Of a stretch of DNA of 35,021 bases, positions 3,072-33,274 are shown piece after piece. Source of the DNA: Thermoplasmata archaeon. GTDB taxonomy: Archaea > Thermoplasmatota > Thermoplasmata > Halarchaeoplasmatales > Halarchaeoplasmataceae. The notes beneath the pieces are model-generated. The model was not told the DNA's origin and did not search any database. It saw only the letters and a program-made list of their open reading frames with translations. Location of the stretch: contig JAFDUB010000003.1 of assembly GCA_019594025.1 (NCBI GenBank), forward strand, positions 1 through 35,021, written 5' to 3'. The stretch's first letter is position 1. Each line of letters starts with the position of its first letter. Both the position numbers and the translations under genes were made by a program.

Positions 3072-3160
3072 TTAATACTCTTTAGCAACATCGGGCTAAT
3101 AAGTGTTGTGGGTTTATGATAATCGAAAATCTTATGATTAAGTAGCAGATGGGGGCTAGC

Positions 3161-3628
3161 ATGAGTGCTCTATCAACCGACAGGAGGGGAGATATACCGG
3201 GATTACCTCTGGAACTCATGGTGATAGGGTTGGTAATGGTGGTAGTTATTCCCTCGGTCTATTCCATCTCTAATCACTATAGAGACCAAAGGATAGAACA
3301 GATGCTGCAGGACGAGTTGAGTAAATTTAAACGAGCGGCGCAGGAGGTAGAAGGTACAGGGGCCGGGAATGTAAGGGTGGTCAAACTCTCTCTCTCTTCT
3401 TTATCTAGAGTAGAATACGTACGCTGTGGAGGGGAGATGCCGATGGTTATCAGATATCGTTTGACTAGAGGCAGCGAGAAAACCTTCAACCTAGGGGTAG
3501 CGGTTACGAATATTACGGATGAAGGAGCTAATGAAATCGAGCTTCCTCTGGACGGTACGGTGATTGCACTTAGACGTACACTCGCCTACGAGGGACTTGT
3601 CGAAGTTAGAGTGGGTGATTTTAGTTGA
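3161..3628 (+). CDS. Archaeal pilin-like protein (class III signal peptide candidate)
   Basis: Short leader 'DRRG' followed by 'DIPGLPLELMVIGLVMVVVIP' hydrophobic helix; ATG 3161 follows a GGGGG RBS-like run (ORF track starts at 3149). Confidence 0.55.
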   Translation: MSALSTDRRGDIPGLPLELMVIGLVMVVVIPSVYSISNHYRDQRIEQMLQDELSKFKRAAQEVEGTGAGNVRVVKLSLSSLSRVEYVRCGGEMPMVIRYRLTRGSEKTFNLGVAVTNITDEGANEIELPLDGTVIALRRTLAYEGLVEVRVGDFS

Positions 3629-4125
3629 GAAGAATCTGTAGGGATAAGAGGGGGATGGTCGAGATGCCTTTCAAACTCATACTGATGTGTGTACTGCTGG
3701 GATTACTCATTCCCACAACAGCGTATGGGTATCGACAGGTTTCCAGGATAAGACTAACTAGGACCGTAGAAGAAAATATCGATGATTTGTTGTTCAAAGC
3801 TAAGAGGATATCACAACAGGGCGACCTGTCTAGAGTGCTGATTGAATTCGATGCGGAAGGTGGGCCGATGGCAAGTTTAGATTACGTTAAATTCGGTGGA
3901 ACGTTAGGTGAAGATGACAACTTTATAGAGTACCGGATGGGATGGTGGAATCAACCCATGTACATATCTACCGAGGGATTGTGTCTAACCTCTCCAAAAA
4001 ACAGTAGTTTTTATCTTAGAGGGGGGAATCACGAACTGGCTCTTACCCGGCTCACGGTATCCAACGAAACCGTGGTTGTACTGTCAGGAGCGGTACATCA
4101 CGTGGACCCAGATTCCTTCTCTTGA
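3625..4125 (+). CDS. Archaeal pilin-like protein (class III signal peptide candidate)
   Basis: 'RDKRG|MVEMPFKLILMCVLLGLLIP'; TTG start with GGTGA RBS, overlapping the upstream stop. Confidence 0.6.
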   Translation: MRRICRDKRGMVEMPFKLILMCVLLGLLIPTTAYGYRQVSRIRLTRTVEENIDDLLFKAKRISQQGDLSRVLIEFDAEGGPMASLDYVKFGGTLGEDDNFIEYRMGWWNQPMYISTEGLCLTSPKNSSFYLRGGNHELALTRLTVSNETVVVLSGAVHHVDPDSFS

Positions 4126-13164: not shown

Positions 13165-14241
13165 TCATCTAGGCTCAAGAGCGTCTTCAGGGCATATCTC
13201 GGCGCAGCAGTAGCATCTGATGCACTTCCACCAACTTATCTTGGGATACTGATTCATCTTGATGGCATCCTCGGGACATATCCTCATACACTCTCCGCAG
13301 GAGATGCACTTATCAGCATATAAATTCGGCCTTTTCATGTACAGGTTCGCCATCACACCACCAAAGGTTTCAGGCAACCACCAGGGTGTAGACCCACCTT
13401 CGGGGTAATTTACATTTACCTCACTCGGTAGTTCTCCTACAACATCGATATCCGAAAGTTTTACCTCCCTGAACAAAGGCACTTTTGATGTATCGATACC
13501 CACTGCTTTACACGCCATATAATCCAGGGCCGGAGCGTCGGTAGATGCAAGGATAATTGATAATTTAACAGGATCTCCTCCAGCAGGCCCCTTTCCTTCC
13601 ATACCTACGATCCCGTCCATTATGGATATGTCTGGTGAAACTGCATCGTGTACGTCCAAAAGCATCCTGTTAAACGTTTTCATCCCTTTGTACTGTCCGT
13701 GAAATGCGGACTTCATGAGTCCGGGAACCATTCCGTAGGTGTTCTTTACCGCACCTGTAAATACCGTTAGTGAATGGGTTTTGAGTTTCGGTAGGTTGAC
13801 CACCAAATCCGCATCATTGCATACATTCATCACCGGAACTGATTTGAGTACCCGCCCTTCAGGTAAAGGTACGTGAGAATATGACAAGTCGTAGTTCAAA
13901 ACCGCATCGGTTTCTTCTGGTATCCTAGTCCAAATCGATTTCTCATAACATCTTTTCAAGAATTTTTTCGAACTCGGTCCACCTGGGCTATCACCTACGA
14001 TCACTTTCATACCTGCATCCTCTAACTCCCGTATAACTGCTATAATAAATTCGGGATGAGTGGTAACCGCTTTCTCAGGGGGAGCACCCTTCAGTAGATT
14101 CGGCTTTACCAGTGCGGTACCACCAGAAAAAGTTAATTTCTTAAATGGTAAGAATATGCTTTTAACGCTGCCCTGCACATTTTGATAATCACCGCATCTT
14201 CTTACGTGAACCTCAGCCATATACTCTTCACCACTGCTCAA
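13165..14241 (-). CDS. DUF362 domain protein with C-terminal 2x[4Fe-4S] ferredoxin domain
   Basis: 'VKPNL', 'TTHP', 'NLPKLKTH', 'GAVKN', 'MEG.GP'; two CxxCxxCxxxCP motifs; real start may be the second Met. Confidence 0.9.
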   Translation of the reverse strand: MSSGEEYMAEVHVRRCGDYQNVQGSVKSIFLPFKKLTFSGGTALVKPNLLKGAPPEKAVTTHPEFIIAVIRELEDAGMKVIVGDSPGGPSSKKFLKRCYEKSIWTRIPEETDAVLNYDLSYSHVPLPEGRVLKSVPVMNVCNDADLVVNLPKLKTHSLTVFTGAVKNTYGMVPGLMKSAFHGQYKGMKTFNRMLLDVHDAVSPDISIMDGIVGMEGKGPAGGDPVKLSIILASTDAPALDYMACKAVGIDTSKVPLFREVKLSDIDVVGELPSEVNVNYPEGGSTPWWLPETFGGVMANLYMKRPNLYADKCISCGECMRICPEDAIKMNQYPKISWWKCIRCYCCAEICPEDALEPR

Positions 14242-14951
14242 GAAGGTATGGGTATGAACTCACAGTAGCCTATATCATCCGCCTTTTTCTTTAAATCGTC
14301 CCAATACTTTATGTAATGTGCGGCCACCGGATAAAATAGGTGATCCTCTATGAATTTATGGTGATGAAGTGAATAGATAAGAGCATTTAACTCTCTAATA
14401 AGTTGGTATCTGTTTTCAGTGCCATTATCAAACAGTTCTTCGAGCCTATCCCGTCTTTCAACAAAATCATTGTGCTCTTTAGCCAGCATATTCAAACGTC
14501 CTTCCATCTCATTTCCTAAAACTCTTCTTAACTCGACAAAAAGAGTTTGCTCTTCCCTGTTAATATGCAAAGTGATCTGGTATAGGTTGTCTATAACCGT
14601 GCATATCACCTTGTCTTCCATGAAATACGCCTTACTACGTAGTGAGGAGGATATTTTGTCGAGTGAAGATAAAAATTCTCCAATCTTTTCATGCTCTTTT
14701 ATAAACGGAAGAACCGGGTGTCCTTCCTCTAACTGCTCCTGGAGCTTCTTCGACTCACCTTGAAGTAACTCCACGTAAAGTTTGCCGATCTCTTTTATAT
14801 CCGCTTCCTTCAAACCGTCGGCCATCAACTCTATCTCAGCCAGGTAGAGATTTATGGTCGGTACTCCCTCCAGCGCCTCTAGAGCGTCCTCCTTGGTAAT
14901 CACGTTGAAGTGATATCCTTTCAACACGTCTATCACATCGTCTACTTCCAT
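14238..14951 (-). CDS. Hemerythrin-like (DUF438-type) protein
   Basis: 'GHPV..F..EH', 'H..REE..LF', 'EH', 'H...ED..FYP' hemerythrin/HHE pattern. Confidence 0.7.
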   Translation of the reverse strand: MEVDDVIDVLKGYHFNVITKEDALEALEGVPTINLYLAEIELMADGLKEADIKEIGKLYVELLQGESKKLQEQLEEGHPVLPFIKEHEKIGEFLSSLDKISSSLRSKAYFMEDKVICTVIDNLYQITLHINREEQTLFVELRRVLGNEMEGRLNMLAKEHNDFVERRDRLEELFDNGTENRYQLIRELNALIYSLHHHKFIEDHLFYPVAAHYIKYWDDLKKKADDIGYCEFIPIPS

Positions 14952-14954
14952 AGA

Positions 14955-15599
14955 TTACTCCACAAAGTGTACCACCACTTTTTCAACGTCCCACATAGGC
15001 TCTATCTTCTCTTTGATATCCTCTTTGATAGCGTTGGCGAATTGATGGTCTTCTGTTAAATCTACATGGATATCCACAACACCTTCTTCAACCGATATAT
15101 CGTGAATTAGGTCTGTTCGGATCACGTCCAAACCGGTCATAGGATTCATAACACGCTTCAATCTTTTCTCAACTACCTCCGGTGTAGTAGGCTCTTTTTC
15201 CTTCACCAAACCGTGTCTTTCTTCGTAATCCCTGATAGCACTTCTTAATCCGTCGATAGCTAAAACCGAGCAGTGTGCCTTTATAGGTGGTAAACCACCC
15301 AATTCATCGGCGGCGTCTTCCCAAGTTATCTTCTTCGCCTCTTCTACGGTCTTCCCCTTGGCCATCTCGGTTATTATTGAACCGGTAGCTATGTTGGAAG
15401 CGCATCCGTAGGATTCAAACTTAACATCGGTTATGGTCTGTGTCTCCTGATCCACCTTTATGTAAACCTTGACCATGTCCCCACAGGCCGGACTGCCTTC
15501 CTGTGCCTTTCCATCAGGATCGTCTATCTTTCCTACGTTTTTTGGATTTTTGAAGTATTCGATTACTTTCTCGCTGTACGGTAAACCCATATCTATCAC
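14955..15599 (-). CDS. iscU: IscU/NifU-type Fe-S scaffold fused to a C-terminal DUF59-like domain
   Basis: 'YSEKV..YF.NPKNVG', 'ACGD', 'YGCASNIA', 'LPPIKAHCS'; tail 'LKRVMNPMTGLDVI...LIHDISV'; likely start ATG 15590. Confidence 0.9.
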   Translation of the reverse strand: MIDMGLPYSEKVIEYFKNPKNVGKIDDPDGKAQEGSPACGDMVKVYIKVDQETQTITDVKFESYGCASNIATGSIITEMAKGKTVEEAKKITWEDAADELGGLPPIKAHCSVLAIDGLRSAIRDYEERHGLVKEKEPTTPEVVEKRLKRVMNPMTGLDVIRTDLIHDISVEEGVVDIHVDLTEDHQFANAIKEDIKEKIEPMWDVEKVVVHFVE

Positions 15600-16750
15600 T
15601 CCTTTCCTAGAGGGCTTATCTCCCTCAATCTTTCTACTACCTCTTTAATGTTATCTACAACATAATCAACATCATCCTGAGTACTGTATCTACCCAAGGA
15701 GAATCTAACAGAACCGTGGGCCCTTTCGTGGTCTCCACCGATACCCATTATCACGTGACTTGCCTCTAGCGAGCGGCTGAAACACGCGGATCCGGTGCTC
15801 ACGGCAACTCCCCTCATATCCATATGAAGTGTGATGGATTCACCCTCCACATAATGGAAGGTGATATTGGCGTTCTGAGGTATACGCTCTTCTCTAGCTC
15901 CGTTCAAGGTGGTATCAGGTATCTCTTTTAACACCCTGTCGATGATCCGATCTCTCAATTCCTTTATCCTGTCGTTCTCTTCCTTGGTCACAAGCTCAAC
16001 AGCTTTGGCAAAACCGACAGCACCGGGTATATTCTCCAGTCCACCTCGTTTGTCGAACTCCTGAAAACCTCCATCCATCTGCTTTTTTATGTTGATTCCA
16101 TCGCGCAAGTAAAGGGCGCCTATTCCCTTGGGTCCATGGATGGTATGAGCAGATAAAGTGATCAAATCGGCGGGGATCTCGTTCACATCCAAGGGAATAC
16201 GTGTGAACGTGTGAGTTGCATCGGTGTGAAAGAACACTCCTGCATCTTTACATATCTCTGCGAGCTTTTTTATATCCTGAAGGGTACCGATCTCCTGGTT
16301 GGCGTGCTGTATGGATACCAGCACTGTGTCATCCCTTATTTCTTCTTTTAAATCATCAGGATCGATAAATCCTTCATCGTCTACAGTTAGGTATGAAACA
16401 TCATATCCTGCTTTTTCAAGTGTTCTAGCGCTGTGAAGTACGGAAAAATCTTCAATATCGGATATTATCAGATGTCCATCATTAGCGGACAAAACACCTT
16501 TCAAAGCAAGGTTACTCGACTCCGCCGACCCGGATGTGAACACTATCTCCTGTGGGCTAGCCCCGATATTTTCCGCGATCGACTTTCTAGCACCATCCAA
16601 ACCTTCCTTTGACTCGACACCCATGGAATGTCCGAATTCGGACGTAGCTACTGCGTACTTATCGAAAAAATACGGTTCCATAGCCTCCATCACTCTTTCG
16701 TCGAGGCACGTACTTGAAGCGTTATCCATATATACTTTCTTTCTTGACAC
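15596..16750 (-). CDS. iscS: IscS/NifS-like protein with non-canonical PLP site
   Basis: 'YMDNA', 'EIVFTSG', 'HTDA', 'GPKG.GAL', 'STGSAC', 'SVRFSLG'; GTG start 16750 after GGTGA RBS; SAHT instead of SAHK. Confidence 0.85.
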   Translation of the reverse strand: MSRKKVYMDNASSTCLDERVMEAMEPYFFDKYAVATSEFGHSMGVESKEGLDGARKSIAENIGASPQEIVFTSGSAESSNLALKGVLSANDGHLIISDIEDFSVLHSARTLEKAGYDVSYLTVDDEGFIDPDDLKEEIRDDTVLVSIQHANQEIGTLQDIKKLAEICKDAGVFFHTDATHTFTRIPLDVNEIPADLITLSAHTIHGPKGIGALYLRDGINIKKQMDGGFQEFDKRGGLENIPGAVGFAKAVELVTKEENDRIKELRDRIIDRVLKEIPDTTLNGAREERIPQNANITFHYVEGESITLHMDMRGVAVSTGSACFSRSLEASHVIMGIGGDHERAHGSVRFSLGRYSTQDDVDYVVDNIKEVVERLREISPLGKE

Positions 16751-16761
16751 TTTTATCACCT

Positions 16762-17190
16762 TTATAGGAATAGTGTAATATCGGACTCCCTGGCCTCCTT
16801 TATATATGTTCCGACGGCGCAGTAGTCACCTATCAGATCACGGTCCAAATCCTCTCTTTTCACACCCATTATATCCATGGTCATATCGCATGCCAGGACT
16901 TTACCGCCTAGTTCGATATAATCATCCATGAGGTCTTTCAACGAACGAACATTCGCCTTCTTCATCTTTCTCTTAACCATCCACTTTCCCAGTCCAAGCA
17001 TATTCATACGAGATAGCGGTCCTTTTTCTAAGCGACCTTTTTTCAACCTATCTAGCCCCCAGAATGTAAAGTATATCGATACGTCCATACCCATAGATAG
17101 AGCGCCTGTACCTACCACAAGCGCACTGTATAGTCTATCGTAATAACCGCTCTGCATAATTATCGTCGCTTTATCAGCCATCCGCATCAC
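16762..17190 (-). CDS. DsrE2/DrsH-like sulfur carrier protein
   Basis: 'IYFTFWGL', 'ACDMTMDIMG' with conserved Cys, 'ITLFL' terminus. Confidence 0.85.
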   Translation of the reverse strand: MMRMADKATIIMQSGYYDRLYSALVVGTGALSMGMDVSIYFTFWGLDRLKKGRLEKGPLSRMNMLGLGKWMVKRKMKKANVRSLKDLMDDYIELGGKVLACDMTMDIMGVKREDLDRDLIGDYCAVGTYIKEARESDITLFL

Positions 17191-17422
17191 CAGGTATCTT
17201 TATAGTTATCTTCCATTTATCGTCCTTTTGTTCAACACTAATAAGCTCCAATCCTAGTGATTCTACGGCCATGGGTATCTCATCCTTTGAAGGAGGATGA
17301 TTTCCAACGATCTCGATAATATCTCCCGCTTCAGCTTTTCGGATAGCCTTCCTTGTTTCTACCAAAGGTACAGGGCATGTTTCCCCTGTTACGTTTATCT
17401 TAATCGTCTTTTTTTCTTCCAT
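17174..17422 (-). CDS. tusA: TusA family sulfurtransferase
   Basis: 'GETCPVPLV' CPxP motif; ATG 17422 follows GGGGT RBS (ORF track starts at 17449). Confidence 0.88.
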   Translation of the reverse strand: MEEKKTIKINVTGETCPVPLVETRKAIRKAEAGDIIEIVGNHPPSKDEIPMAVESLGLELISVEQKDDKWKITIKIPGDADG

Positions 17423-17551
17423 TTGATTACCCCTTATCTGATAGTTCATGTGGATTATTAGTTTTCCCTAGGTTATAAACACTATAAGGTGATTATAGTA
17501 TTTATACTTTTAGTTCCAAAAAGATTATATCCTGTTATACACATTGTTAAT

Positions 17552-20500
17552 ATGGATGGAAACAGCATGAAAGTTTTTCTTGTGAGCGGGGATATCGAGT
17601 TCCTAAAAAGTGCAAAGGACTTCCTTGAAAAGAAGACGGAGGACTTAAATGTAGATACCTCTGGTTCTCCTGAAAAAGCGTTAAAGAAAATATCACGAGG
17701 AAAGTACGATATCGTGGTTTCAACATACTTCACCGATAAAGAAATGGACTGCTTAGATTTCTTAGTGAAACTAAAGAGAATTAACGATGATATATCAATC
17801 ATAATGATTTCAAGGGAGAAAGAAGAGAAGATTGCAGTAAAAGCTTTGGAACTTGGTGCGGAAAGGAACATTTTCGGTACAGGTTCAAAAGAAATACAGA
17901 TGATCACCCTCTTTAGAGCTATCGAGAATGAGCTTGAGTTGAAGCAGGTTCAGAGGGAACTAAAGGAATCGGAACGCCTCTATAAAGGTATGTATGACTC
18001 CATGCTAGTGCTATCCAAACACGACGATCTAGATTACCTGCTGGCGACGATAGCTTATGAAGTCAAATCCTTACTGGGCGCCACCGATTGTAATATACAT
18101 TTTTACGACGAGGATGAAGAGCTGTTACGTCCGATCTATTCAAACCACCCAAAATATTCTGAAGAAATAATGAAACATCCTATACCCCTGGGCGAAGGTC
18201 TTACTGGTATGGTTGCTGAAGACGGTGTTGGCAGATACTTAAATTATGACGACCCAGATCACGTCTCGATTCACGTTCCCGATACCGATTTGGAGGAGGA
18301 GGAACTGGAATCCATAATGGTGGTACCTCTTTGGGACTACGACAAGCTGTTAGGGGCGATGTCTGTAGGAAAACTAGAGGATACCTTTGACGATTATGAC
18401 ATGAGCAAACTGAATCTTTTTGCAAGGCAGGTAGAGATAGCTTTAATAAAGGCCAGGCATATAAAAGATCTAAAAAAATCTCGTAAAAAACTGTTCCAAG
18501 AAAAGGAACGTATTAAAAAAATCCACGACATCGCAATCAAAATGAAAAGTATACGTTCAGAGGAAGAATTATACCCGATGATAATCGATTCTGTCCGGGA
18601 AATCCTCGATTTCTATGTCTGCAGCCTCGATCTCCTGGAGGACGGAGAATTTGAGGTAAAAGCCACCATGGGAGGGGTAAATAAGAAGGGAGATAGATAT
18701 CCTGTAGAAGGTGTCGCTGGTGAAACCCTAAAAATGAATAGGTCGTATATCATAGATGATGTCCAGGGTTCGAGGATGGCAAAACCCAAACGGAAAAATT
18801 ATCTTTCCGCTATAAGCGTGCCGATAGGTGACTTCGGTGTGTTTCAGGCCCTTTCAAAGAGAAAAAACGACTTCTCTCAAGAGGATTTGGATATTACCGA
18901 ACTACTCATGGCCCACGTCACCCAAACTCTCATAAGACTTCGTAATTTTAGAAAAGTGAAAGAGAGTGAAGAAAAATTTAAAGCTTTGTCCGAGAACAGC
19001 CCCTTCGCAATATTTGTTTATCGGGAAAAATTCCTCTACGTCAACGATGCCAGTGAGGAGTTGACAGGATATTCAAAAATGGAAATGCTCAACAGACACT
19101 TCTGGGAGGTGGTACACCCAGATCATCGAGAGATGGTAAAAGAAAGAGGCTTTGCTCGGCTAAGAGGCGAAGATGTCGCCCCACGTTATGAGTTCAAGAT
19201 AGTAAAAAAAGACGGAACCCCCCGATGGATATATTTCACAGGGAGTAAGATTAACTTTGAAGGCGAAAGTGCGGGACTCGGCACCGCAATCGATATAACC
19301 GAGAGGAAGGAAACCGAGGAAGCTTTGAAGGAAACTAATCGTAAACACATCACATTGATCGAGAACCTTCCCGGTATCGCTTATAGGTGCAAAAACGTTA
19401 AAAACTATACCATGGAATTTTTAAGCGAAGCCTGTACAAAACTGACAGGATACCAGCCTGATGATTTTGTGAACGACAAGAAACTGGCCTTTAAAGATAT
19501 CATACATCCTGAGGATAGAGAGTATGTATGGAGGTCAATCCAAGAGGCTGTAGAAAAAAGAGAATCTTTCGAAATAGAGTATAGAATAATCACAGATGAC
19601 AATGAAGAAAGATGGATATGGGAGCAGGGAAGAGCGGTTGAATTTCCCAAAGATGGGCCGGAGATACTAGAAGGGATAATAACAGATATCACAGAGCAAA
19701 AGATATCGGAGGCATTATTGAAGGAGAGAGAAGAAAAGTACCGAACTATCTTTGAATGCGCAGATGATGCAATATTCGTAATGAAAGATGATATATTCAT
19801 CGACTGTAACGTAAAAACGTTGGACATATTTCAATGTTCTCGTGATGATATTGTGGACGAACCACCATATAAATTTTCCCCGCCAAAACAACCCGATGGT
19901 AGAGATTCCAAAGAAAAGGCCTTGGAAAAGATAAACGCCGCCCTTTCCGGCAAACCTCAGTTATTTGAGTGGGTACACACAACAATGGCGGGTGAACGAT
20001 TTTATGCGGAAGTTAACCTGAATCGGTACAAAATAAACGATGAACTGTACATCATGGCTATAGTTCGTGATATCTCCGAGCAAAAACAAGCCGAAAAAGA
20101 ACTGCGGGAATACAAAGATCAATTGGAAGAGATGGTGGAAGAGAGAACCGCGGCGCTAAGGGATGCCAATATCGAGTTGAAGGCATTTACTCATTCTATG
20201 TCCCATGATCTAAAAGCACCTCTGAGGGCTATACAAGGATTCACTAGAGAATTAATGAAAGAACAAAAGGAGGGGTTGGACCAAGACGGTGTAGAGTGTC
20301 TCAAACGGATACATAAGGCCTCCGTAAGGATGAATACCCTAATCGAGGATCTGCTACGGTATAGTGAGGTATCCAAGGAGAAGAGGGCGCTTACCCAGGT
20401 ATCGCTGAACGAAGTATTAAAAGAAACCATCCAAGATTTTGAAGAAGTTATAGAAGAGAAAAATGCCATAGTTTCCATAGAGGGGAAAATGCCTGTGGTT

Positions 20501-20845
20501 ATGGGAAGGTACTCGACCATGGTCCAGATATTCTCAAACCTGCTATCCAATGCCCTTAAATTCGTCGAGGATGGCCAGTCCCCGGAGATTAAGATTTATG
20601 CCGAAAGTAGTGAAGACGTCGTACGTATATGGGTGCAAGACAAGGGCATAGGTATTCCTGAAGAACGTCACGATGAAATATTCCATCTTTTCGAAAGACT
20701 CCATGGCCGAGAAATTTATCCCGGGACGGGCATAGGTTTATCCATAGTTAATAAAGCGGTTGAGAAGATGGAGGGGAAAGTTGGTGTTGAATCGAAATCG
20801 GGGGAAGGAAGTAAATTCTGGGTCGAACTCGTTCCTTATCGATAA
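17552..20845 (+). CDS. Hybrid sensor histidine kinase: pseudo-REC, GAF, GAF, 3xPAS, HisKA, HATPase
   Basis: H-box 'SHDLKAPLRAI', N-box 'NLLSNALKF', G1 'DKGIGI', 'FERLH', G2 'GTGIGL'; PAS 'VHPDHR', 'IHPEDR', 'DITE'; TATA-like TTATAT about 25 nt before ATG 17552. Confidence 0.92.
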   Translation: MDGNSMKVFLVSGDIEFLKSAKDFLEKKTEDLNVDTSGSPEKALKKISRGKYDIVVSTYFTDKEMDCLDFLVKLKRINDDISIIMISREKEEKIAVKALELGAERNIFGTGSKEIQMITLFRAIENELELKQVQRELKESERLYKGMYDSMLVLSKHDDLDYLLATIAYEVKSLLGATDCNIHFYDEDEELLRPIYSNHPKYSEEIMKHPIPLGEGLTGMVAEDGVGRYLNYDDPDHVSIHVPDTDLEEEELESIMVVPLWDYDKLLGAMSVGKLEDTFDDYDMSKLNLFARQVEIALIKARHIKDLKKSRKKLFQEKERIKKIHDIAIKMKSIRSEEELYPMIIDSVREILDFYVCSLDLLEDGEFEVKATMGGVNKKGDRYPVEGVAGETLKMNRSYIIDDVQGSRMAKPKRKNYLSAISVPIGDFGVFQALSKRKNDFSQEDLDITELLMAHVTQTLIRLRNFRKVKESEEKFKALSENSPFAIFVYREKFLYVNDASEELTGYSKMEMLNRHFWEVVHPDHREMVKERGFARLRGEDVAPRYEFKIVKKDGTPRWIYFTGSKINFEGESAGLGTAIDITERKETEEALKETNRKHITLIENLPGIAYRCKNVKNYTMEFLSEACTKLTGYQPDDFVNDKKLAFKDIIHPEDREYVWRSIQEAVEKRESFEIEYRIITDDNEERWIWEQGRAVEFPKDGPEILEGIITDITEQKISEALLKEREEKYRTIFECADDAIFVMKDDIFIDCNVKTLDIFQCSRDDIVDEPPYKFSPPKQPDGRDSKEKALEKINAALSGKPQLFEWVHTTMAGERFYAEVNLNRYKINDELYIMAIVRDISEQKQAEKELREYKDQLEEMVEERTAALRDANIELKAFTHSMSHDLKAPLRAIQGFTRELMKEQKEGLDQDGVECLKRIHKASVRMNTLIEDLLRYSEVSKEKRALTQVSLNEVLKETIQDFEEVIEEKNAIVSIEGKMPVVMGRYSTMVQIFSNLLSNALKFVEDGQSPEIKIYAESSEDVVRIWVQDKGIGIPEERHDEIFHLFERLHGREIYPGTGIGLSIVNKAVEKMEGKVGVESKSGEGSKFWVELVPYR

Positions 20846-23667: not shown

Positions 23668-24204
23668 ATGGATTTAGACGATCTGAATATATTTGAAAAG
23701 TACTCTACAGGCACATTCGCCCTGGTACTTGGGATGGCTATAATTGGTACTATAACTTACATAATTTACGTACTCGGTCCCCTCTACGGTGACCATAGGT
23801 CTGTTTTTTTACTCTCGTTTCTAGTCATTACTCTAGGTATTTTCATTCCTTTTTGTTTTTTCGTGGAAATGATTTTCGATGATATACCTGATGTTGTAGG
23901 GAAGTTTTTAGCCGGTTTGTTGTTTGCAGGTATAGTTTGGACATCCTATCATACAAATACCAGCGAAGGAATTGTAGGTGCGGAGCTAGTACTCTACATG
24001 GCACTACCGGCCTTGTTCTCGATCCTCACGTCTTTAGTTTTGTTTAGAGGCGTAGTTATACCGGTAATCGAAGATAGCGGTTTCGGAGTTGAATGGGGGG
24101 ATGAGGAGGAAGGCATTATCACTGAAGATGAAATGGAGGGCGAGAAGGTATCGGAGGAGGAAGAATCGGATCTTTTTCCTGAAGAAATGGAAGACTCTTG
24201 GTGA
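23668..24204 (+). CDS. Hypothetical membrane protein (about 4 TM) with very acidic C-terminal tail
   Basis: Four hydrophobic segments; E/D-rich last 45 or so residues; GGAG RBS. Confidence 0.7.
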   Translation: MDLDDLNIFEKYSTGTFALVLGMAIIGTITYIIYVLGPLYGDHRSVFLLSFLVITLGIFIPFCFFVEMIFDDIPDVVGKFLAGLLFAGIVWTSYHTNTSEGIVGAELVLYMALPALFSILTSLVLFRGVVIPVIEDSGFGVEWGDEEEGIITEDEMEGEKVSEEEESDLFPEEMEDSW

Positions 24205-24210
24205 ATGTAA

Positions 24211-25194
24211 TTGGTATCGATTCTACGATTAGGGCATCGGCCTGAAAGAGATAAACGTATGACCACACACGTTGGATTGACCGCTAGATCCTTCGGTGCT
24301 CAAGGTATTTATCTACCTAAAATCGATAACAGGGTGAAGAAAACTCTCGATGACGTTTCAAACAGATTCGGAGGCGCTTTTAAAGTTGAAGAAAGGAAGG
24401 ATTGGAGGGGACTGATAAAAGATTGGGGCGGAGACGTGGTGCACCTAACCATGTATGGTGAAAATATAGATGATTTTTTCAACAAGGTATCTTTAAAAAA
24501 TCCATTGGTCATCGTTGGGGCCGAGAAGGTACCGGGTGAAGTGTACAAGATTGCAGATTACAACGTAGCGGTAGGCAATCAACCCCACTCCGAAGTTGCG
24601 GCATTGGCAGTCTTTTTGGACCGATTAAACGAGCGGATTAGTAGTGATGAGTTTACAGACTCTAAAATCTCGGTCTTACCATCGAACGGTAAGAAAAGGG
24701 TGATAGATTATTCGAATATCCCATCACTGCACGGCAGCTACGTTTTTTGCATTGAAAGGGGCATGGAACAAAATTTGATGGATCATACCATATCCGTGCT
24801 AGAAAGAGTGTTGAAGATTCAGAACAGATTCGGAGGCGATATACAGCTTATAATGGCAGGCGCTATGCTTCATGACATAGGTAGAACGGAAACACACGGG
24901 GTGGACCACGGTGTAGTCGGTGCCGATATCGTTAGAGAGCAGGGATGGGACGAAGAGCTTGCTAAGATGGTGGAAAGGCATGTTGGAGGAGGGATAACTA
25001 AGGAAGAGGCGGTTCAGCAGGGATTGCCGAAGAGAAATATGGTACCGACTAGTTTGGAAGAAAAAATAATATGCCATGCAGACAACACCGCCGGTGGAAT
25101 TGATAGATTCGAAGAGTTGTTAGAGAGGACGAAATCCGCAGGCTACGTAAAAAGTGCAGAGCGCATGAAGGAGTTAGCTGATTTTTTTAAATAA
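24211..25194 (+). CDS. trm56: tRNA (cytidine(56)-2'-O)-methyltransferase Trm56 fused to an HD domain
   Basis: 'LRLGHRPERDKR.TTHV.LTAR', 'HLTMYG', 'VGAEKVP', 'NQPHSEVAALA'; C-terminal 'LHDIG', 'HGVVG', 'ERHVGGG', 'HADN'. Confidence 0.93.
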   Translation: MVSILRLGHRPERDKRMTTHVGLTARSFGAQGIYLPKIDNRVKKTLDDVSNRFGGAFKVEERKDWRGLIKDWGGDVVHLTMYGENIDDFFNKVSLKNPLVIVGAEKVPGEVYKIADYNVAVGNQPHSEVAALAVFLDRLNERISSDEFTDSKISVLPSNGKKRVIDYSNIPSLHGSYVFCIERGMEQNLMDHTISVLERVLKIQNRFGGDIQLIMAGAMLHDIGRTETHGVDHGVVGADIVREQGWDEELAKMVERHVGGGITKEEAVQQGLPKRNMVPTSLEEKIICHADNTAGGIDRFEELLERTKSAGYVKSAERMKELADFFK

Positions 25195-25209: not shown

Positions 25210-26487
25210 TTAAACGAGTTTTTGCTTTTTTCCGATATCCATCATCACGAAGCCGGAGTTTACCTTGGGGTAAAAATCCGTGGACTTCTCGGGCATACGT
25301 TCACCGTTCTTCGCGGCTCTTAGAACCTGCTCGGGTCTTGTAGCGTTTACCAGGAACGCAGCGGTCGCATTACCTGTTTTAACTTTGTTTACCGCGTCCT
25401 CAGCCCACCTTTCGTAGGATATTGTCTCGTCTATGTCCAGTTTCCCGGTCTTCATTATTCCTTCGAAGATAACGTCTCGAAGGACAACCACGTCTAGACT
25501 CTTGTAATCCTCCGAATAATCGTCTGGTAAGAATTTCTCGATGGAAGAACGGTCCTTTAGTCTTAGACCTATGTTTCTTCCCCCATCGTAAACTACGAAG
25601 GCGGTGGTGTCTTTGTTCTTAGTGAGGAATTCGTCGCTATTTTCCACATCACTTACATCGAAGTATTCTTCCATATCGTTTAAGTGCTCTTCGGTTAATT
25701 TATGCTCCAGAAGAAGTCTGTGTCCTGGGAGTACGACTAAACCCGGATCCTCCACAGGTACCATGTAGGTCATCCTGAAGTTGAAAGCCGAGTCCTCGGC
25801 CCAATCCGTTTTTCCTCTGGTTTCGTCTCTGTAGGTAACAGCGGTTTCATATCTATGATGTCCGTCGGCGATAACCACCTGCTGGTCTTTCAACACCTCT
25901 TGAATTTTCTTAATATCCGATAGCGATTCAATTCTCCATACCTGACTTTTTACACCGTATTCGTCTTCAACTTCGAATTCGGGTTCGTTCTTGGAGATTT
26001 CATCGAATATTTCGATGGTTTTTTGTTCTGGATCGCTGTACAGCATGAATCCCGGTTCAAGATTTTTCTCAGTAGCACTGAGCATGTTCAGCCTGTCGAT
26101 CTTTGGACCTTTATGGGTCTGCTCATGAGGTAGTACCACTCCTTCTTCGAAAGGATATAATTTAACTGCGGATATGAACCCCTTTCGTGTGTACCTCTTT
26201 CCCAGCACCTCGAATTCCTGGTAATAGACATAGATACACGGTTTTTTATCGGGGACGAGTACGTTTTCCTTGAGCCAGTTATTAAGTCTCTCAGCTGCGG
26301 CTTTGTATCGCTCTTCCTCCTTGGGTAAGATCAAACGGCAGAAGTTGTACTCACTTTTACCGTAGTACTTATCTTGAAGTTCCGGTGGGATCTTGTCGTA
26401 AGGTTGTGTTATCACTTTTTCCATAGAACCTATTTTCTCTTCGTCGTAATGTATACCGGGAAAGGGACGGATCTCTACCATGATCAT
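25210..26487 (-). CDS. DUF1015 family protein
   Basis: 'IRPF.G', 'PYD', 'LPHE.T', 'IADGHHRYETA', 'MPEKST.FYPK'. Confidence 0.92.
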   Translation of the reverse strand: MIMVEIRPFPGIHYDEEKIGSMEKVITQPYDKIPPELQDKYYGKSEYNFCRLILPKEEERYKAAAERLNNWLKENVLVPDKKPCIYVYYQEFEVLGKRYTRKGFISAVKLYPFEEGVVLPHEQTHKGPKIDRLNMLSATEKNLEPGFMLYSDPEQKTIEIFDEISKNEPEFEVEDEYGVKSQVWRIESLSDIKKIQEVLKDQQVVIADGHHRYETAVTYRDETRGKTDWAEDSAFNFRMTYMVPVEDPGLVVLPGHRLLLEHKLTEEHLNDMEEYFDVSDVENSDEFLTKNKDTTAFVVYDGGRNIGLRLKDRSSIEKFLPDDYSEDYKSLDVVVLRDVIFEGIMKTGKLDIDETISYERWAEDAVNKVKTGNATAAFLVNATRPEQVLRAAKNGERMPEKSTDFYPKVNSGFVMMDIGKKQKLV

Positions 26488-27407
26488 CCCCTTTTCTTAA
26501 GCTCGGCGATAACTTTTTCTGCTGCCTGTGTTCCTGCTCTCGCTTGTCCTTCCAAGGTCTGTCCGCCTATGTGGGGCGTTGCGTGGAAGTTATCAAGGGT
26601 GAGCAGGGGATTATCTCCCGGAGGTTCCTCGGCGAAAACGTCCTTGCTGGCGAATCTTATTTCACCATCTGTTAGGGCCTCATAGAGTGCATCCTCATCA
26701 ACTACACCGCCGCGTGAACAATCGACCAATACAGCGGATTCCTTCATCTTCTTGAATTCTTCGGAGCTAAGTAGATGATGTGTCGAATCGATATGAGGTA
26801 CGTGGAGAGTGATGAAGTCGCTTTCGGTTATGATCGTATCGAAGTCGACCATCTTAGCAGGTCCGGGTTCATCTACGTCGATAACATCGAATGCTATCAC
26901 GTTCATACCGAATGCGTCAGATCTTTTGGCAACTTCATGACCGATATTACCGTATCCGATTATACCTAGTGTCTTTCCGTAGATCTCGTTGCTTTTCAAG
27001 TCCTTCTTTATCCACTTTCCTTCCCTGAGGCTGATGGTGCCGGCGACTATATTCCTATAAGCGGCGAACATGTGGGTAAATACCAACTCGGCTACGGAGA
27101 TTGTTGTAGCGGTAGGAGTGTTATATACGGCAATTCCTTTGTCCTTGGCATAATCAACATCGATATTATCCAAGCCGATACCCGGTCTACCGATCACCTC
27201 TAGGTTTTCTGCCGTATCTAGGGTCGGTTCTCCGACCTTGGTGGAACCGCGTACGATCATCGCATGATAAGGGGGTACCTTTTTGGTCAATTCTTCTTTG
27301 GACATCCCAAACTCTTGATCTACTTCAAGTCCAGCTTCTTCCAGCATCTCTATGCCTTCGTCGGCGATGGGGTTGCAAACCAGTACTTTTTTGTTCATAT
27401 GTATCAC
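26484..27407 (-). CDS. serA: D-2-hydroxyacid dehydrogenase, short phosphoglycerate dehydrogenase-like (no ACT domain)
   Basis: 'G.GLDNID', 'GIIGYGNIG', 'RGGVVDE', 'DVF.EEP', 'TPHIG'; likely start ATG 27398. Confidence 0.75.
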   Translation of the reverse strand: MIHMNKKVLVCNPIADEGIEMLEEAGLEVDQEFGMSKEELTKKVPPYHAMIVRGSTKVGEPTLDTAENLEVIGRPGIGLDNIDVDYAKDKGIAVYNTPTATTISVAELVFTHMFAAYRNIVAGTISLREGKWIKKDLKSNEIYGKTLGIIGYGNIGHEVAKRSDAFGMNVIAFDVIDVDEPGPAKMVDFDTIITESDFITLHVPHIDSTHHLLSSEEFKKMKESAVLVDCSRGGVVDEDALYEALTDGEIRFASKDVFAEEPPGDNPLLTLDNFHATPHIGGQTLEGQARAGTQAAEKVIAELKKRG

Positions 27408-28486
27408 AGCCCTGCTACTTCTTCTATGGCATCGGTGAGCTCTTTTACATCCTCTACGGAGTGCTCTCCCATGTGACCGATACGGAAGGTCTTTTCTTTC
27501 AGCTGTTTTCCATATCCATTCGAGAAGAGGATACCGTATTTCTCATCGATCTCCTGACGGAGTTCATTTATGTTCAATCCCTGGGTGTTTTTGATCGTAC
27601 TGACTGTTTGTGACCCGTAACCTGCTTCTGGGAACATCTCGAAGTGTTTTTTAGCCCATTTTTGGGTGTACTCCGCCATATCTTTGTGCCTTTGATCTCT
27701 CGCTTTATGGCCTTCTTCAAGCATGCGTTCCATCTGTTTTCTGTAAGCAAGCATCAATGAGATTGCCGGAGTGGAGTGGGTTTGACCTTTCTTGTTATAG
27801 TAATCTATGTTCCTTTGGAAACCTGCATACCATGAAGCAGAATCTGAGTTTGCCTCTCGCTCGTATGCCTTATCATTTACCACGCAAACAGCTAATCCTG
27901 GAGGCATGGCAAAGGCCTTCTGCACGGAGGTGAATATGACATCGATATTGCTTCCTTCTATGTCTATGTAATCCCCTCCTAATGCGGATATTGCGTCCAC
28001 TATGAATAAAGTGTCCGGGAAGTCTTTCATTACCTCTCCTATCTCCTCTAGTGGATTTCTTATACCGGTGGATGTCTCGTTCATTACACAGGTGAAGGCG
28101 TCGTAGTCTTTTTTCTCCAATGCCTCCCTCACATCTTTCGGTTTCACCGCTTTACCCCATTCATACTCCAGTCTATCGACGTTTTTTCCAAGACGTTCTG
28201 CGATATCCGCCTGCCTTTGAGAAAAACTTCCGCAGGTCGAACAAAGAACTCTGTCGTCGACGCAATTCATTATGGAGCTCTCCATGAAGAGCGTGCCGGA
28301 TGTGGACAGAATTATTACGTCGTTCTCAGTACCGAGAAACTTTTTAGTGTCCTCGGTCATAGTAGTGAACAACTCAGTCATCGTTGGAGAACGGTGACCG
28401 AACATCCATGCTTCCATTTCATCTATTATTTCCTTCTTGACCTCAGTGGGTCCCGGGATGAATAATTTCGTGTGTTTATCTTTCAC
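27404..28486 (-). CDS. Class V PLP aminotransferase (serine-pyruvate/phosphoserine aminotransferase-like)
   Basis: 'LFIPGPT', 'GHRS', 'NETSTG', 'VDAIS', 'SVQKAFAMPPG' (PLP Lys intact), 'FRIGHMG'; GTG 28486 after GGTGG RBS (ORF track start 28507). Confidence 0.88.
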   Translation of the reverse strand: MKDKHTKLFIPGPTEVKKEIIDEMEAWMFGHRSPTMTELFTTMTEDTKKFLGTENDVIILSTSGTLFMESSIMNCVDDRVLCSTCGSFSQRQADIAERLGKNVDRLEYEWGKAVKPKDVREALEKKDYDAFTCVMNETSTGIRNPLEEIGEVMKDFPDTLFIVDAISALGGDYIDIEGSNIDVIFTSVQKAFAMPPGLAVCVVNDKAYEREANSDSASWYAGFQRNIDYYNKKGQTHSTPAISLMLAYRKQMERMLEEGHKARDQRHKDMAEYTQKWAKKHFEMFPEAGYGSQTVSTIKNTQGLNINELRQEIDEKYGILFSNGYGKQLKEKTFRIGHMGEHSVEDVKELTDAIEEVAGL

Positions 28487-28600
28487 ATACACCACCTGAT
28501 TCGGCATACAAAGATAATGTATATAATGGTTGTGTTTTTTCGAATCAAGTCCAACACATTTTTATATCTCACATACCTCCCTTTGTATTGGTGGAAACCC

Positions 28601-30312: not shown

Positions 30313-30873
30313 ATGATAGAGATTCGGTTTCACGGAAGAGGTGGACAAGGTGCGGTAACAGCGTCCGAGTTCCTGGCCCGGGCTGCGTTTTTGGAAGGGA
30401 ACGACGTCCAGTCGTTTCCAATGTATGGAGTAGAAAGAAGAGGTGCCCCGGTGACCGCCTTCACTAGGATCGATAGTAAAGCGGTTAGGAACAAGGCACA
30501 GATCCACGAGCCAGACATAGTTATCGTTATGGACATGGCTCTACTGGACGCTGTGGATGTTACTGCAGGGCTCAAGCCAGACGGAAAAGTGATCCTCAAC
30601 ACGGAGAAGGCTCCGGATGAAATTGATCTTGGAGTCGATAATCCGATATACACAGTGGATGCCAGCAGTATTGCGGTAGAGCATAGATTGGGTTCTAAGG
30701 TGGCCCCCATCGTGAACACTGCCATACTCGGCGCCATCACAAGGGCTACGGGGATAGTAGATATAGAAACGCTGGTGGATGTTGTACGCAACAACGCACC
30801 GGCAAAAAAAGAAGAGAACGCAAAAGCCACCAAACAAGCTTATAATGAGGTAAGAGGTGAAGACCTTGAGTGA
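30313..30873 (+). CDS. porG: Pyruvate/2-ketoisovalerate:ferredoxin oxidoreductase gamma subunit
   Basis: '[16 protein letters not shown]', '[10 protein letters not shown]', 'NTAILGA'. Confidence 0.93.
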
Positions 30874-31177
30874 AGAAGAAGTTTTTAGAATAGTTATTGA
30901 TCCAAAGGACCATAGAGACCTACCGAGAGCGGTTATAACTGACTGCCCCTCTCATCTTATGACGAAGACTGGAAGTTGGAGGACACTCAGACCTATTGTG
31001 GATCTGGAGAAGTGCATTAAGTGCGGTATCTGCTGGAAATTCTGCCCCGATGTATCCATTCACGTTGAAGAGGAAGGAGCAGTAGTTGATTACGACTTCT
31101 GTAAAGGATGTGGAATATGTGCTAAGGAATGTCCTGTAGATGCCATCGAGATGAAAAAGGAGGCAGACTATGTCTGA
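30866..31177 (+). CDS. porD: 2-oxoacid:ferredoxin oxidoreductase delta subunit (2x[4Fe-4S])
   Basis: 'KTGSWR..RP', two CxxCxxCxxxCP motifs; TTG 30866 after GAGGTGA RBS (ORF track start 30857). Confidence 0.92.
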
Positions 31178-32363
31178 AATGAAGATCGTATCAGGTAACT
31201 TCGCTGCAGCATACGGTGCTAAACTTTCTAGGGTAGAGGTAGTGGCAGCCTATCCTATCACCCCTCAGACCGAAGTTGTAGAGAAGATAGCGGAGCTGGT
31301 AGCAGAAGGCGAGATGGACTCGGAATACATCAAAGTAGAAAGCGAACACTCGGCAATGGCCGCCTGCATAGCTGCAGCAAACGCCGGTGCAAGGGCTTAT
31401 ACAGCGTCCTCTGCACATGGACTGGCACTAATGCATGAGTTGTTAATCTGGGCCGCCGGTGCAAGGCTACCCGTGGTCATGACCAATATAAATCGAGCCA
31501 TGGGTCCACCCTGGAGCGTATGGGCTGACCATCACGACACCCTGGCCCAAAAAGGAACCGGCCAGCTTCAATTTTTCTGTGAAAATAATCAAGAAGTTCT
31601 GGACAGCGTCATAATGGCTTACAAGATATGTGAAGACGAAGAGATTATGCTGCCGGCAATGGTCGTTGAAGACGCTTTCATCCTTAGCCATACAAAAGAG
31701 CCGGTGGAGATCTACGATCAAGAACTAGTAGATGAATTCTTACCTCCCTATGACCCCGATTACAAACTGGATGTAGATCAACCTCTAGGTTTCGGCTCGT
31801 TGGGTATGCCAGATTGGTACATGGACTTTAGGTACAAGATAGCAGAGGCCTTCGAAAAGGCTCCGGATAAGATAGAAAAGGTGAACAAAGAATTCAAAGA
31901 AACCTTCGGCAGAGATCCCGGTGGACTTATAGAGGAATATAGGACAGACGGAGTGGATGTTCTTATCGTCACCATGGGATCGATATCTAGTACATCACAG
32001 GATGTAATCGACGAACTGAGAGACGAAGGACATAATGTAGGCCTTGCTAGGCTGCGTACTTTCCGTCCGTTCCCAGTTGACAAATTCAGAGAGCTCACAA
32101 AGAATGTGAACGTTGTAGGTGTTCTAGACAGGAGTTATACATTCGGACACGGAGGAGACGCTGCTAGAGAGATAAAGGATGCTCTCTACGGACACAACGA
32201 CGTGATCATAAAGGACTATATAGTCGGATTAGGAGGTAGAGACCTGACTCCCAAGATACTGAAGAACGTGATGCTTGACGCGATCTCCCTTCAGGATAAA
32301 GGACTAGGCAAGGAGATCGAATGGGTCGACCTTAGAATAAACCAACATAAATGGAGGCGATGA
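31170..32363 (+). CDS. porA: Pyruvate/2-oxoacid:ferredoxin oxidoreductase alpha subunit
   Basis: 'AAYPITPQT', 'VESEHSAM', 'FRPFP', 'GLGGRD'. Confidence 0.93.
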
Positions 32364-33262: not shown

Positions 33263-33274
33263 GGGGACGAATAA

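Follow-up and report, generated by a model that had tools for sequence, protein, structure and literature searches.

Lysine-less IscS in a conserved tusA-dsrE-iscS-iscU cassette of anaerobic archaea and bacteria: a candidate persulfide relay for iron-sulfur cluster assembly

We examined a 35,021-nt stretch of DNA from a Thermoplasmata archaeon (assembly GCA_019594025.1, contig JAFDUB010000003.1, positions 1 to 35,021; hereafter the window), which carries a block of minus-strand genes for two sulfur carriers, a homologue of the cysteine desulfurase IscS without the lysine that binds pyridoxal phosphate (PLP), and an IscU scaffold. The region is read here as one operon for a variant minimal ISC (MIS-type) system that assembles iron-sulfur (Fe-S) clusters, most likely a persulfide relay into the lysine-less IscS and IscU, and we put the probability of this reading at about 55%. 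Its core consists of tusA, a dsrE2B-like gene, iscS and an iscU-DUF59 fusion, four genes that stay together in anaerobic archaea and bacteria alike. The literature leaves open by what means anaerobes assemble Fe-S clusters when their IscS-IscU pairs are unable to desulfurate cysteine. A candidate answer lies in TusA and the DsrE2B-like protein, which are constant partners of two lysine-less IscS clades whose pockets were rebuilt differently, and of no lysine-bearing clade sampled; the cassette may explain the sulfur supply of "dead" desulfurases in anaerobic archaea and bacteria.

The operon comprises six tightly packed open reading frames (ORFs) preceded by an intergenic region:

17174-17449, minus strand: tusA, small persulfide carrier with active Cys25 in CPVP (PF01206 at 75.6 bits)
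16762-17190, minus strand: dsrE2B-like sulfur carrier with Cys101 in ACDMT (PF13686 DrsE_2 at 122 bits)
15596-16759, minus strand: iscS, IscS/NifS fold without the PLP lysine (T206) (PF00266 at 239.4 bits)
14955-15599, minus strand: iscU-DUF59 fusion (PF01592 at 151 bits and PF01883 at 49)
14238-14951, minus strand: DUF438-like and hemerythrin/RIC-like di-iron protein (PF01814 at 38.6 bits)
13165-14241, minus strand: fusion of DUF362 and a 2x[4Fe-4S] ferredoxin domain (PF04015 at 190 bits, and Fer4 families)
17450-17560, no strand: divergent intergenic region shared with a sensor kinase gene; putative operon promoter, from a reading of the sequence

A first-pass annotation had described six nearly abutting genes on one strand, and its ORFs, coordinates and domain assignments all check out, as do the motifs that it had assigned to the carriers and scaffold (CPVP in TusA, ACDMT in DsrE, and CGD, LPPIK and His in IscU); the motifs seen in the operon proteins are CPVP, ACDMT, CGD, LPPIK-x-HC and GSAC. 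When the longest ORFs are taken, the junctions from tusA to the DUF362 gene measure -17, +2, -4, +3 and -4 nt. Judging from family alignments and gene calls, tusA may start later (at ATG 17422, likely the true start, giving 82 aa), and so may the DUF362 gene (ATG 14220) and possibly iscS; the spacing is then still 35 nt or less. On its upstream side the block meets a divergent hybrid sensor kinase gene, and on its downstream side a convergent triose-phosphate isomerase gene, and therefore one operon is the natural reading.

A lysine-less IscS with a rebuilt pocket

IscS residues are numbered here as in E. coli, from the K-12 iscS locus, so that C328 and R354 correspond to C326 and R352 of the window. 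Homology of the window's protein to the IscS fold extends over its full length (PF00266 at residues 9-367; E 2.6e-103 to a solved desulfurase), and none of the curated cut-offs is reached (TIGR03402, 445.1 vs. 530.75; PRK14012, 393 vs. 548). At the PLP lysine position, SAHTIHGPKG of the window aligns to SAHKMYGPKG of the solved desulfurase; the resulting K206T replacement confirms the degenerate PLP site that the first-pass annotation had reported. Further changes are H104D, N155Q, Q183H and T243L. The clade to which the protein belongs, termed T-type here, keeps T76, S203, H205, D180, R354 and C328, although the window itself has Ala at position 76.

The clade was sampled as the 80 best related loci from species-representative genomes which, with the window, gave 81 proteins. 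All 81 share a pocket signature of D/N104, Q155, H183, T/A206, a hydrophobic residue at 243, and C328. Residue 206, the site of the Schiff-base lysine, is Thr in 80 proteins and Ala in one, and the replacements at the other PLP contacts (H104, N155, Q183 and T243 to D, Q, H and L) are fixed clade-wide. The mobile-loop Cys (C326, in GSACFS of the window) and the substrate Arg (R352) are present in 86/86 rows. In addition, 22 positions are invariant in the T-type clade and rare among Lys-bearing relatives, including a Phe beside the loop Cys and two His (window H302 and H312) on a helix that contacts IscU in E. coli. A substituted pocket that is uniform in 81/81 proteins shows purifying selection on the new state, not decay. 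A decaying pseudo-enzyme was considered and ruled out by the shared substitutions together with the 22 clade-specific invariant positions.

By sequence comparison, the protein belongs to an IscS-derived family that is compact and highly conserved and has an invariant new pocket. In a profile search of 1.84 billion representatives, the clade was covered by three representatives at 50% identity, two of them fragments, and among full-length proteins with the rebuilt pocket the score dropped from 691 to 475 bits. The window's protein is 40% identical to the Lys-bearing IscS of its own genome and 43% identical to a member of the Archaeoglobus fulgidus-type clade. T-type IscS is predicted to keep the IscS fold, a dimer-type architecture, the loop Cys and the docking surfaces for IscU and TusA; without the Schiff-base lysine, we infer that it could not itself make persulfide from cysteine.

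Loss of the lysine also occurs outside the T-type clade. It is absent in 20 of the best 150 representative clusters of a global profile search, with many different signatures. Further Lys-less types with the signatures K/R-H-H-L-E (tusA only), H-H-E-M-S and R-Q-H-V-H form the sister group of the window's clade (loci L171:2492-3649, L173:298-1449 and L175:2489-3646; L174 and L176; L179).

Carriers, scaffold and their linkage to iscS

In 72 of the 80 related loci, tusA and dsrE lie directly upstream and iscU directly downstream of the T-type iscS, all on one strand. The iscU of the syntenic loci encodes about 215 aa and hence includes DUF59. This arrangement spans at least 10 phyla and both domains. 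Archaeal hosts comprise Thermoplasmata, Methanosarcinales and other Methanomicrobia, Methanobacteria, Methanofastidiosia, 'Thermococci' metagenome-assembled genomes (MAGs) and Hadarchaeota; Dehalococcoidia, Anaerolineae, Halanaerobiales, Syntrophia, Atribacterota, Nitrospirota and others are among the bacterial and further hosts. Across domains, T-type IscS proteins are 65-71% identical, which suggests that the whole cassette moved as one unit. That the genes cluster by chance is ruled out by synteny of the four-gene core in so many related loci of both domains. Clustering of all neighbouring ORFs across the loci yielded no fifth conserved neighbour; PAS kinases, DUF2284, a P-type ATPase and ApbE were considered as such and all proved lineage-specific.

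To follow the relation between the lysine and the carriers, 151 genomes were sampled evenly across the window's phylum, and 90 loci were taken where they matched the Lys-bearing IscS of the window's own genome; the 14 weakest matches (E above 1e-60) were left out. Homologues were sorted by residue 206, and flanks were searched with TusA and DsrE profiles built from hits; loci with at least 800 nt of upstream flank were counted, and a carrier was scored within 1.3 kb on the same strand. Lys-bearing homologues had TusA or DsrE nearby in 0/39 cases, and Lys-less homologues had TusA in 20/40, DsrE in 16/40 and both in 15/40. Thus, the first-pass annotation's suggestion that Lys-less IscS might occur with tusA and dsrE more often than Lys-bearing IscS was borne out (TusA, 20/40 vs. 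0/39). In a second phylum, that of Methanococcoides, from which the best 30 loci of 151 genomes were taken, Lys-to-Asp loci carried TusA in 22/26 and DsrE in 19/26, and Lys-bearing loci carried neither (0/4).

The Lys-less homologues in the sample fall into the T-type, a D-type, a Lys-to-Asp subclade nested within the A. fulgidus-type clade, and small types such as K/R-H-H-L-E, which have tusA only. The D-type has a Lys-to-Asp change and the signature H-N-A-D-T/S; its closest solved relative is A. fulgidus IscS (413 bits), and its loci nearly always read tusA-dsrE-iscS-iscU. Among loci with HNAD[TS]C or HNAASC and at least 800 nt upstream, 15/16 carry tusA or dsrE; those lacking the full pair were two with tusA only and one with dsrE only. 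The nested subclade has signatures such as H-N-M-D-S, H-G-M-D-S and H-F-T-D-S (L141-L169, e.g., L141:2477-3703 and L148:2480-3688).

In a quick maximum-likelihood tree of 116 rows, 25 of them Lys-bearing rows drawn at random, the T and D clades were each fully supported and were not joined, and the window's protein fell outside the 60-row D clade (SH-aLRT 100). The two clades rebuilt their pockets in opposite ways: T-type IscS has lost H104 and N155 and retained R354 and H205, whereas in the D-type H104 and N155 are retained and R354 and H205 lost. Both are tied to tusA-dsrE despite their differing pockets. A functional link is suggested because the linkage persisted through deep divergence and inter-domain transfer, and because two oppositely rebuilt clades keep the carriers.

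Residues at the TusA-IscS interface also bear on this link. In E. coli, sulfur passes from IscS to TusA; TusA Cys19 lies ~4 Å from IscS Cys328 in the complex, TusA R27 and R31 form salt bridges with IscS E49 and D52, and IscS W45R, E49A and D52 mutants lose TusA binding (Shi 2010, PMC2854127). At these positions, T-type IscS (86 rows, three loci being entered twice) has Ile at 45 in 80/86, E49 in 85/86, Glu or Asp at 52 in 67/86 and R55 in 86/86. In linked TusA, the R27 equivalent is present in 77/77 rows and position 31 is Arg or Lys in 75/77. By contrast, Lys-bearing archaeal paralogues have Arg or Lys at position 45 in 34/54, and position 49 varies. In D-type TusA, position 31 is acidic in 35/35 rows and the docking pattern is ambiguous. 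The T-type residues support a direct contact between TusA and IscS that would be of the E. coli kind; they say nothing on the direction of transfer.

TusA, with the CPxP Cys on a TusA fold, scores 75.6 bits against the PF01206 cut-off of 28.6, and it does not reach those of the NCBIfam TusA equivalog (34.7 vs. 78) and YedF. C25, P26, P28, R33 and K34 are invariant across 31 aligned orthologues, and Asp45 and Asp51 of E. coli TusA are replaced by His and Glu in 77/77 rows of linked TusA. The DsrE-like protein has 122 bits against a PF13686 cut-off of 25, compared with 64.3 against 210 for the NCBIfam DsrE2 equivalog; its closest solved relatives are 3pnx and 2qs7, with the active Cys aligned, Cys101 is invariant in 76 orthologues, and its gene is single-copy in the window's genome. 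IscU has C39, D41, C66, H109, C110 and LPPIK, that is, the three Cys, Asp, His and LPPxK of a scaffold, and the ligand residues are invariant in 75 orthologues. It scores 151 bits with PF01592 and 161.7 with the NCBIfam equivalog, below the cut-off of 187.9. Its closest solved relative is A. fulgidus IscU (4eb5_C), and its C-terminal DUF59 domain has a conserved HQFA motif.

Apart from fusions of 817-864 aa (P0241-P0244), in which a pyridine-nucleotide-disulfide reductase, a rhodanese, DsrE/DrsE_2 and TusA are joined, no longer forms were found of the DsrE-like protein. These fusions tie the two carriers to the handling of sulfane sulfur.

Sulfur source, direction of flow and alternatives

The window belongs to a 1.58-Mb MAG that is 80% complete, and the closest named loci come from soda-lake and salt-lake Thermoplasmata MAGs. 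No match to SufB/SufD (PF01458) was found in this genome or in four others of the same genus (66-94% complete), only 4 of 18 same-family genomes have one, and SufB was not found in two further cassette-bearing MAGs of halophilic Thermoplasmata. In 4/5 genus genomes, the window's own included, no NifU_N match other than IscU-DUF59 was obtained. To our knowledge, a SUF/SMS scaffold is otherwise near-universal in archaea. If the absence is real, these halophilic Thermoplasmata are without one. The cassette appears to hold the only Fe-S scaffold in the window's genus, and it is suggested to be the only Fe-S scaffold system of some halophilic Thermoplasmata. The first-pass annotation had also raised the question of a canonical IscS/SufS or SufBC in the genome. 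SufB was indeed not found in any of the five genus genomes, whereas desulfurase genes are present: a Lys-bearing IscS (contig C31), which has an SGSAC loop but lies apart from any IscU gene, and on C8 a SufS-like gene with both the lysine and the catalytic Cys. The "cysteine-independent" assembly that it had proposed is consequently unsupported for this organism.

We envisage the persulfide relay as follows. Sulfane sulfur would be loaded onto the conserved Cys of the DsrE2B-like protein and TusA, from an inorganic source (polysulfide or persulfide species) or possibly from one of the genome's two Lys-bearing desulfurase homologues. TusA would then dock on T-type IscS as in the E. coli complex, with sulfur moving in the reverse direction, from TusA to the loop Cys of IscS. 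Finally, the loop would swing to IscU, deliver the sulfur and contribute a fourth ligand to the cluster, in the manner of the A. fulgidus IscS-IscU structure; the DUF59 domain probably helps to hand on the cluster. For the two remaining proteins of the operon, the di-iron protein is plausibly an iron donor or cluster-repair factor, and the DUF362-ferredoxin may donate electrons for the reduction of persulfide to sulfide.

Several observations weigh against this reading. The direction of sulfur flow is one that we infer purely by reasoning. Eight loci depart from the common gene order; three are merely cut by contig ends, while three Anaerolineae loci have iscS alone and two Methanococcoides loci have iscS-iscU only. 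In the nested Lys-to-Asp subclade (16 loci, mostly of one family), iscU adjoins iscS with no TusA or DsrE nearby. A single Lys-less clade was not rejected by the approximately unbiased (AU) test (p 0.417), for which two long rows were left out and the tested group was named after the tree had been seen. Only two changes of the Lys state are needed on the tree, which leaves one or two independent contrasts; a sign test cannot reach significance, and the two-by-two table of Lys state and TusA is therefore no valid statistic. The phosphate- and pyridine-N-binding positions T76, S203, H205 and D180 are kept, and T-type IscS could still bind PLP or pyridoxamine phosphate (PMP) non-covalently, as in A. 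fulgidus IscS. Among the longer DsrE forms no fusion with IscS or IscU was found, which counts as weak evidence. Only one TusA was found in the genome (80% complete), and it could also act in thiolation pathways of other kinds. The Lys-bearing IscS and SufS-like genes of the window's genome also belong here, as do those of other hosts: 10 of 13 other cassette-bearing genomes have at least one Lys-bearing IscS/SufS-like gene. Since such genes are present, cysteine-derived sulfur is possible, and cysteine may still be the ultimate sulfur source.

These desulfurases are the basis of the best-surviving alternative, namely that the same relay operates in a cysteine-dependent manner. A Lys-bearing IscS or SufS-like enzyme would make persulfide, TusA and DsrE would ferry it to IscS-IscU, and T-type IscS would serve as a dedicated adaptor and cluster ligand, so that sulfur production is separated from cluster building. 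The distribution of Lys-bearing genes just described and the transfer of sulfur from E. coli IscS to TusA (PMC2854127) both favor such a scheme. Nevertheless, three of the 13 MAGs (Methanothrix, Methanofastidiosum and a 1.1-Mb Dehalococcoidia), whose completeness is not established, have no match to a Lys-bearing IscS/SufS-like gene while SufB is present, and the Arg or Lys found at position 45 in most Lys-bearing archaeal paralogues is a change that abolishes TusA binding in E. coli. Taken together, we regard a cysteine-dependent relay as possible, albeit with well under an even chance.

According to a second alternative, T-type IscS is a structural partner and cluster ligand only and free sulfide feeds IscU, while TusA and DsrE use the complex as a hub, or are co-regulated with it for other thiolations (tRNA, molybdenum/tungsten cofactor) or for sulfane-sulfur buffering. 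This follows the model for A. fulgidus IscS, which has Asp199 and bound PMP, is inactive and provides a Cys ligand to the [2Fe-2S] cluster on IscU, with sulfide as the proposed sulfur source for the pair (PMC8918507). It also agrees with the anaerobic, sulfidic habitats of all hosts, with TusA being the genome's sole copy, and with the Lys-less subclade that has no linked TusA or DsrE. On the other hand, neither A. fulgidus iscS2U2 nor Methanothrix iscSU was able by itself to complement E. coli, not even when sulfide was supplied, and the study asks what the pairs still lack (bioRxiv 10.1101/2024.03.20.586028). Moreover, the TusA-docking residues are specifically kept on T-type IscS, and the four-gene synteny survives inter-domain transfers. 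A purely structural role thus seems unlikely.

A further-reaching proposal, for which we would claim only slim odds, is that the former PLP pocket has been rebuilt into a ligand site (D104, Q155, D180, H183, H205, T206 and Arg354) for Fe(II) or a small inorganic sulfur species. T-type IscS would then actively donate iron or sulfane sulfur, its Cys loop moving back and forth among this site, TusA and IscU, and IscS, TusA and DsrE2B together would make up a self-sufficient assembly machine independent of cysteine that spread horizontally among anaerobes and is the sole Fe-S biogenesis system in halophilic Thermoplasmata.

Lastly, a repair or stress operon in which the RIC-like protein and IscS-IscU rebuild damaged clusters and the carriers recycle sulfur, instead of de novo assembly, is very improbable: the hemerythrin-like protein does resemble the YtfE/RIC repair proteins and its gene is duplicated in close relatives, but most cassettes have no RIC-like gene, and a cassette that is the only scaffold found in the genus argues for a housekeeping role.

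Neighboring genes and comparison with known systems

The hemerythrin-like and DUF362 genes, which the first-pass annotation had placed within the system, both lie outside the conserved four-gene core; they are lineage-specific additions, and DUF362 is a recent neighbor of the cassette. As core parts they were rejected, since none but close relatives have them next to the cassette, and in most genomes of the family DUF362 is found at another place. The hemerythrin-like gene is directly 3′ of iscU in 7/19 family genomes. Its product has PF01814 at 38.6 bits and an N-terminal DUF438 match at 22.3, below the cut-off; the ligand pattern H, H-x3-E, EH, H-x3-E is conserved in seven paralogues or orthologues. 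Similarity to YtfE/RIC is weak (NCBIfam, E 2e-4; PDB 7bhc, E 0.03, with the H-x3-E motifs aligned). The two share helices with aligned H-x3-E and EH motifs; in contrast, YtfE/RIC has ScdA_N where the window's protein has a DUF438-like N-terminus, and scores are far under the family cut-offs (20.9 vs. 254 and 18.8 vs. 204.7). DUF362-ferredoxin orthologues occur in 17/18 family genomes and are adjacent to the cassette in only about five genomes, those of the genus and one other. Eight Cys are invariant in 40 homologues, and solved relatives exist for the ferredoxin part only.

Upstream of tusA, the minus strand has a TATA-like, A/T-rich stretch near 17496-17510 that may be a promoter, as judged by eye. 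A promoter scan for sigma-70 sites, which are bacterial and not archaeal, found no more sites than in shuffles. The divergent hybrid sensor kinase gene (17489-20845, plus strand) encodes a receiver, GAF, several PAS, HisKA and HATPase domains. PAS-HisKA kinases lie near the cassette in 16/81 loci in mixed orientation, which may merely reflect how common these domains are. In nine Methanosarcinales loci (L077:9359-9913 and eight others), a gene for a DUF2284 'predicted metal-binding protein' lies ~1.5 kb 3′ of iscU on the same strand; in Methanolobus-like genomes it may belong to the cassette as an accessory gene peculiar to the lineage.

Elsewhere in the window, positions 30313-35020 (plus strand) hold a 2-oxoacid:ferredoxin oxidoreductase set (gamma, a small ferredoxin-like ORF at 30854-31174, alpha and beta), after which comes a second TPP enzyme, cut off by the window's end; as Fe-S-rich clients, they lie not far from the assembly operon. 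Positions 25210-28507 (minus strand) carry co-directional genes for DUF1015, a D-2-hydroxyacid dehydrogenase and a distant class-V aminotransferase (64 bits), a cluster that looks serine-pathway-type and is not related to desulfurases. A single ORF at 24211-25194 (plus strand) joins aTrm56 tRNA 2′-O-methyltransferase and HD phosphohydrolase domains, and three ORFs of 159-178 aa at 3149-4125 and 23668-24204 (plus strand) have no Pfam match at E 1e-5.

Full-text searches, which did not extend to subscription-only TusA reviews and the supplements of Deere 2020, retrieved no published description of a tusA-dsrE-iscS-iscU cassette. The first-pass annotation's claim of an undescribed system is upheld for the carrier link and the rebuilt pocket; a Lys-less IscS with a 24-kDa IscU and the inactive A. 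fulgidus IscS are already in print. The former is IscS1/IscU1 of Methanosarcina acetivorans (MA0808/MA0807), in which IscS1 has an STGSACFS loop and lacks PLP residues including the lysine, as in the window, and IscU1 has ~24 kDa, which fits an IscU with an extra domain (PMC7585200). From the printed motif, the gene content and relatives, this pair is probably T-type; orthologues of Methanolobus, Methanococcoides and Methanomethylovorans belong to the window's clade, with 66-69% identity and tusA-dsrE upstream. Proteome data include IscS1 (Deere et al. 2020, PMC7585200 Table 1), which was insoluble, in inclusion bodies, when expressed alone. Deere et al. liken it to A. fulgidus IscS and remark on the lysine loss, the protein being uncharacterised; unlike the window, the available portion of their account does not name TusA/DsrE, and hemerythrin and DUF362 are not part of the description (PMC7585200).

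A. fulgidus IscS2-IscU2 (PDB 4EB5, 4HVK and 4R5F) shares with the window a lysine-less IscS fold with a loop Cys, which in A. fulgidus ligates the cluster, and members of its clade, the locus of A. fulgidus itself aside, share the tusA-dsrE flank. It differs in having Asp206, Ala183 and Asn205 and in the loss of Arg354, where the window has T, H, H and R and so falls outside the type. The A. fulgidus type is a separate, well-supported clade, with an IscU without DUF59 and a shorter DsrE partner. With E. coli IscS-TusA, the window has in common the fold, the mobile Cys loop, the scaffold ligands of IscU and the contact positions (TusA R27/R31; IscS 45/49/52/55). E. coli ISC has the catalytic lysine, and its HscAB, Fdx, IscA, IscX and IscR genes have no counterpart in the window's operon, which instead includes tusA and dsrE and for which a reversed sulfur flow is proposed.

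MIS (MisS-MisU), like the window's system, is a two-component pair of a desulfurase homologue and a scaffold that is found in anaerobes and has no chaperones (PMC13066941, PMC12192291). In the accessible parts of these papers, it is described as an active cysteine desulfurase plus scaffold with 'no carrier'; by comparison with that description, the window has a desulfurase that is predicted to be inactive and two fixed sulfur carriers. As for the carriers, DsrE-type and TusA proteins take sulfur from polysulfide in vitro and pass it on, and the rDsr/sHdr relays of sulfur oxidisers resemble the window in the adjacency of tusA and a gene for a Cys-bearing DsrE-family protein (PMC11094781). The DsrE of the window, unlike theirs, is of a little-studied, soluble DsrE2B-like kind (best matches 2qs7 and 3pnx), and whereas the partner in those relays is DsrC/DsrAB or sHdr (PMC11094781), in the window it is an Fe-S scaffold complex.

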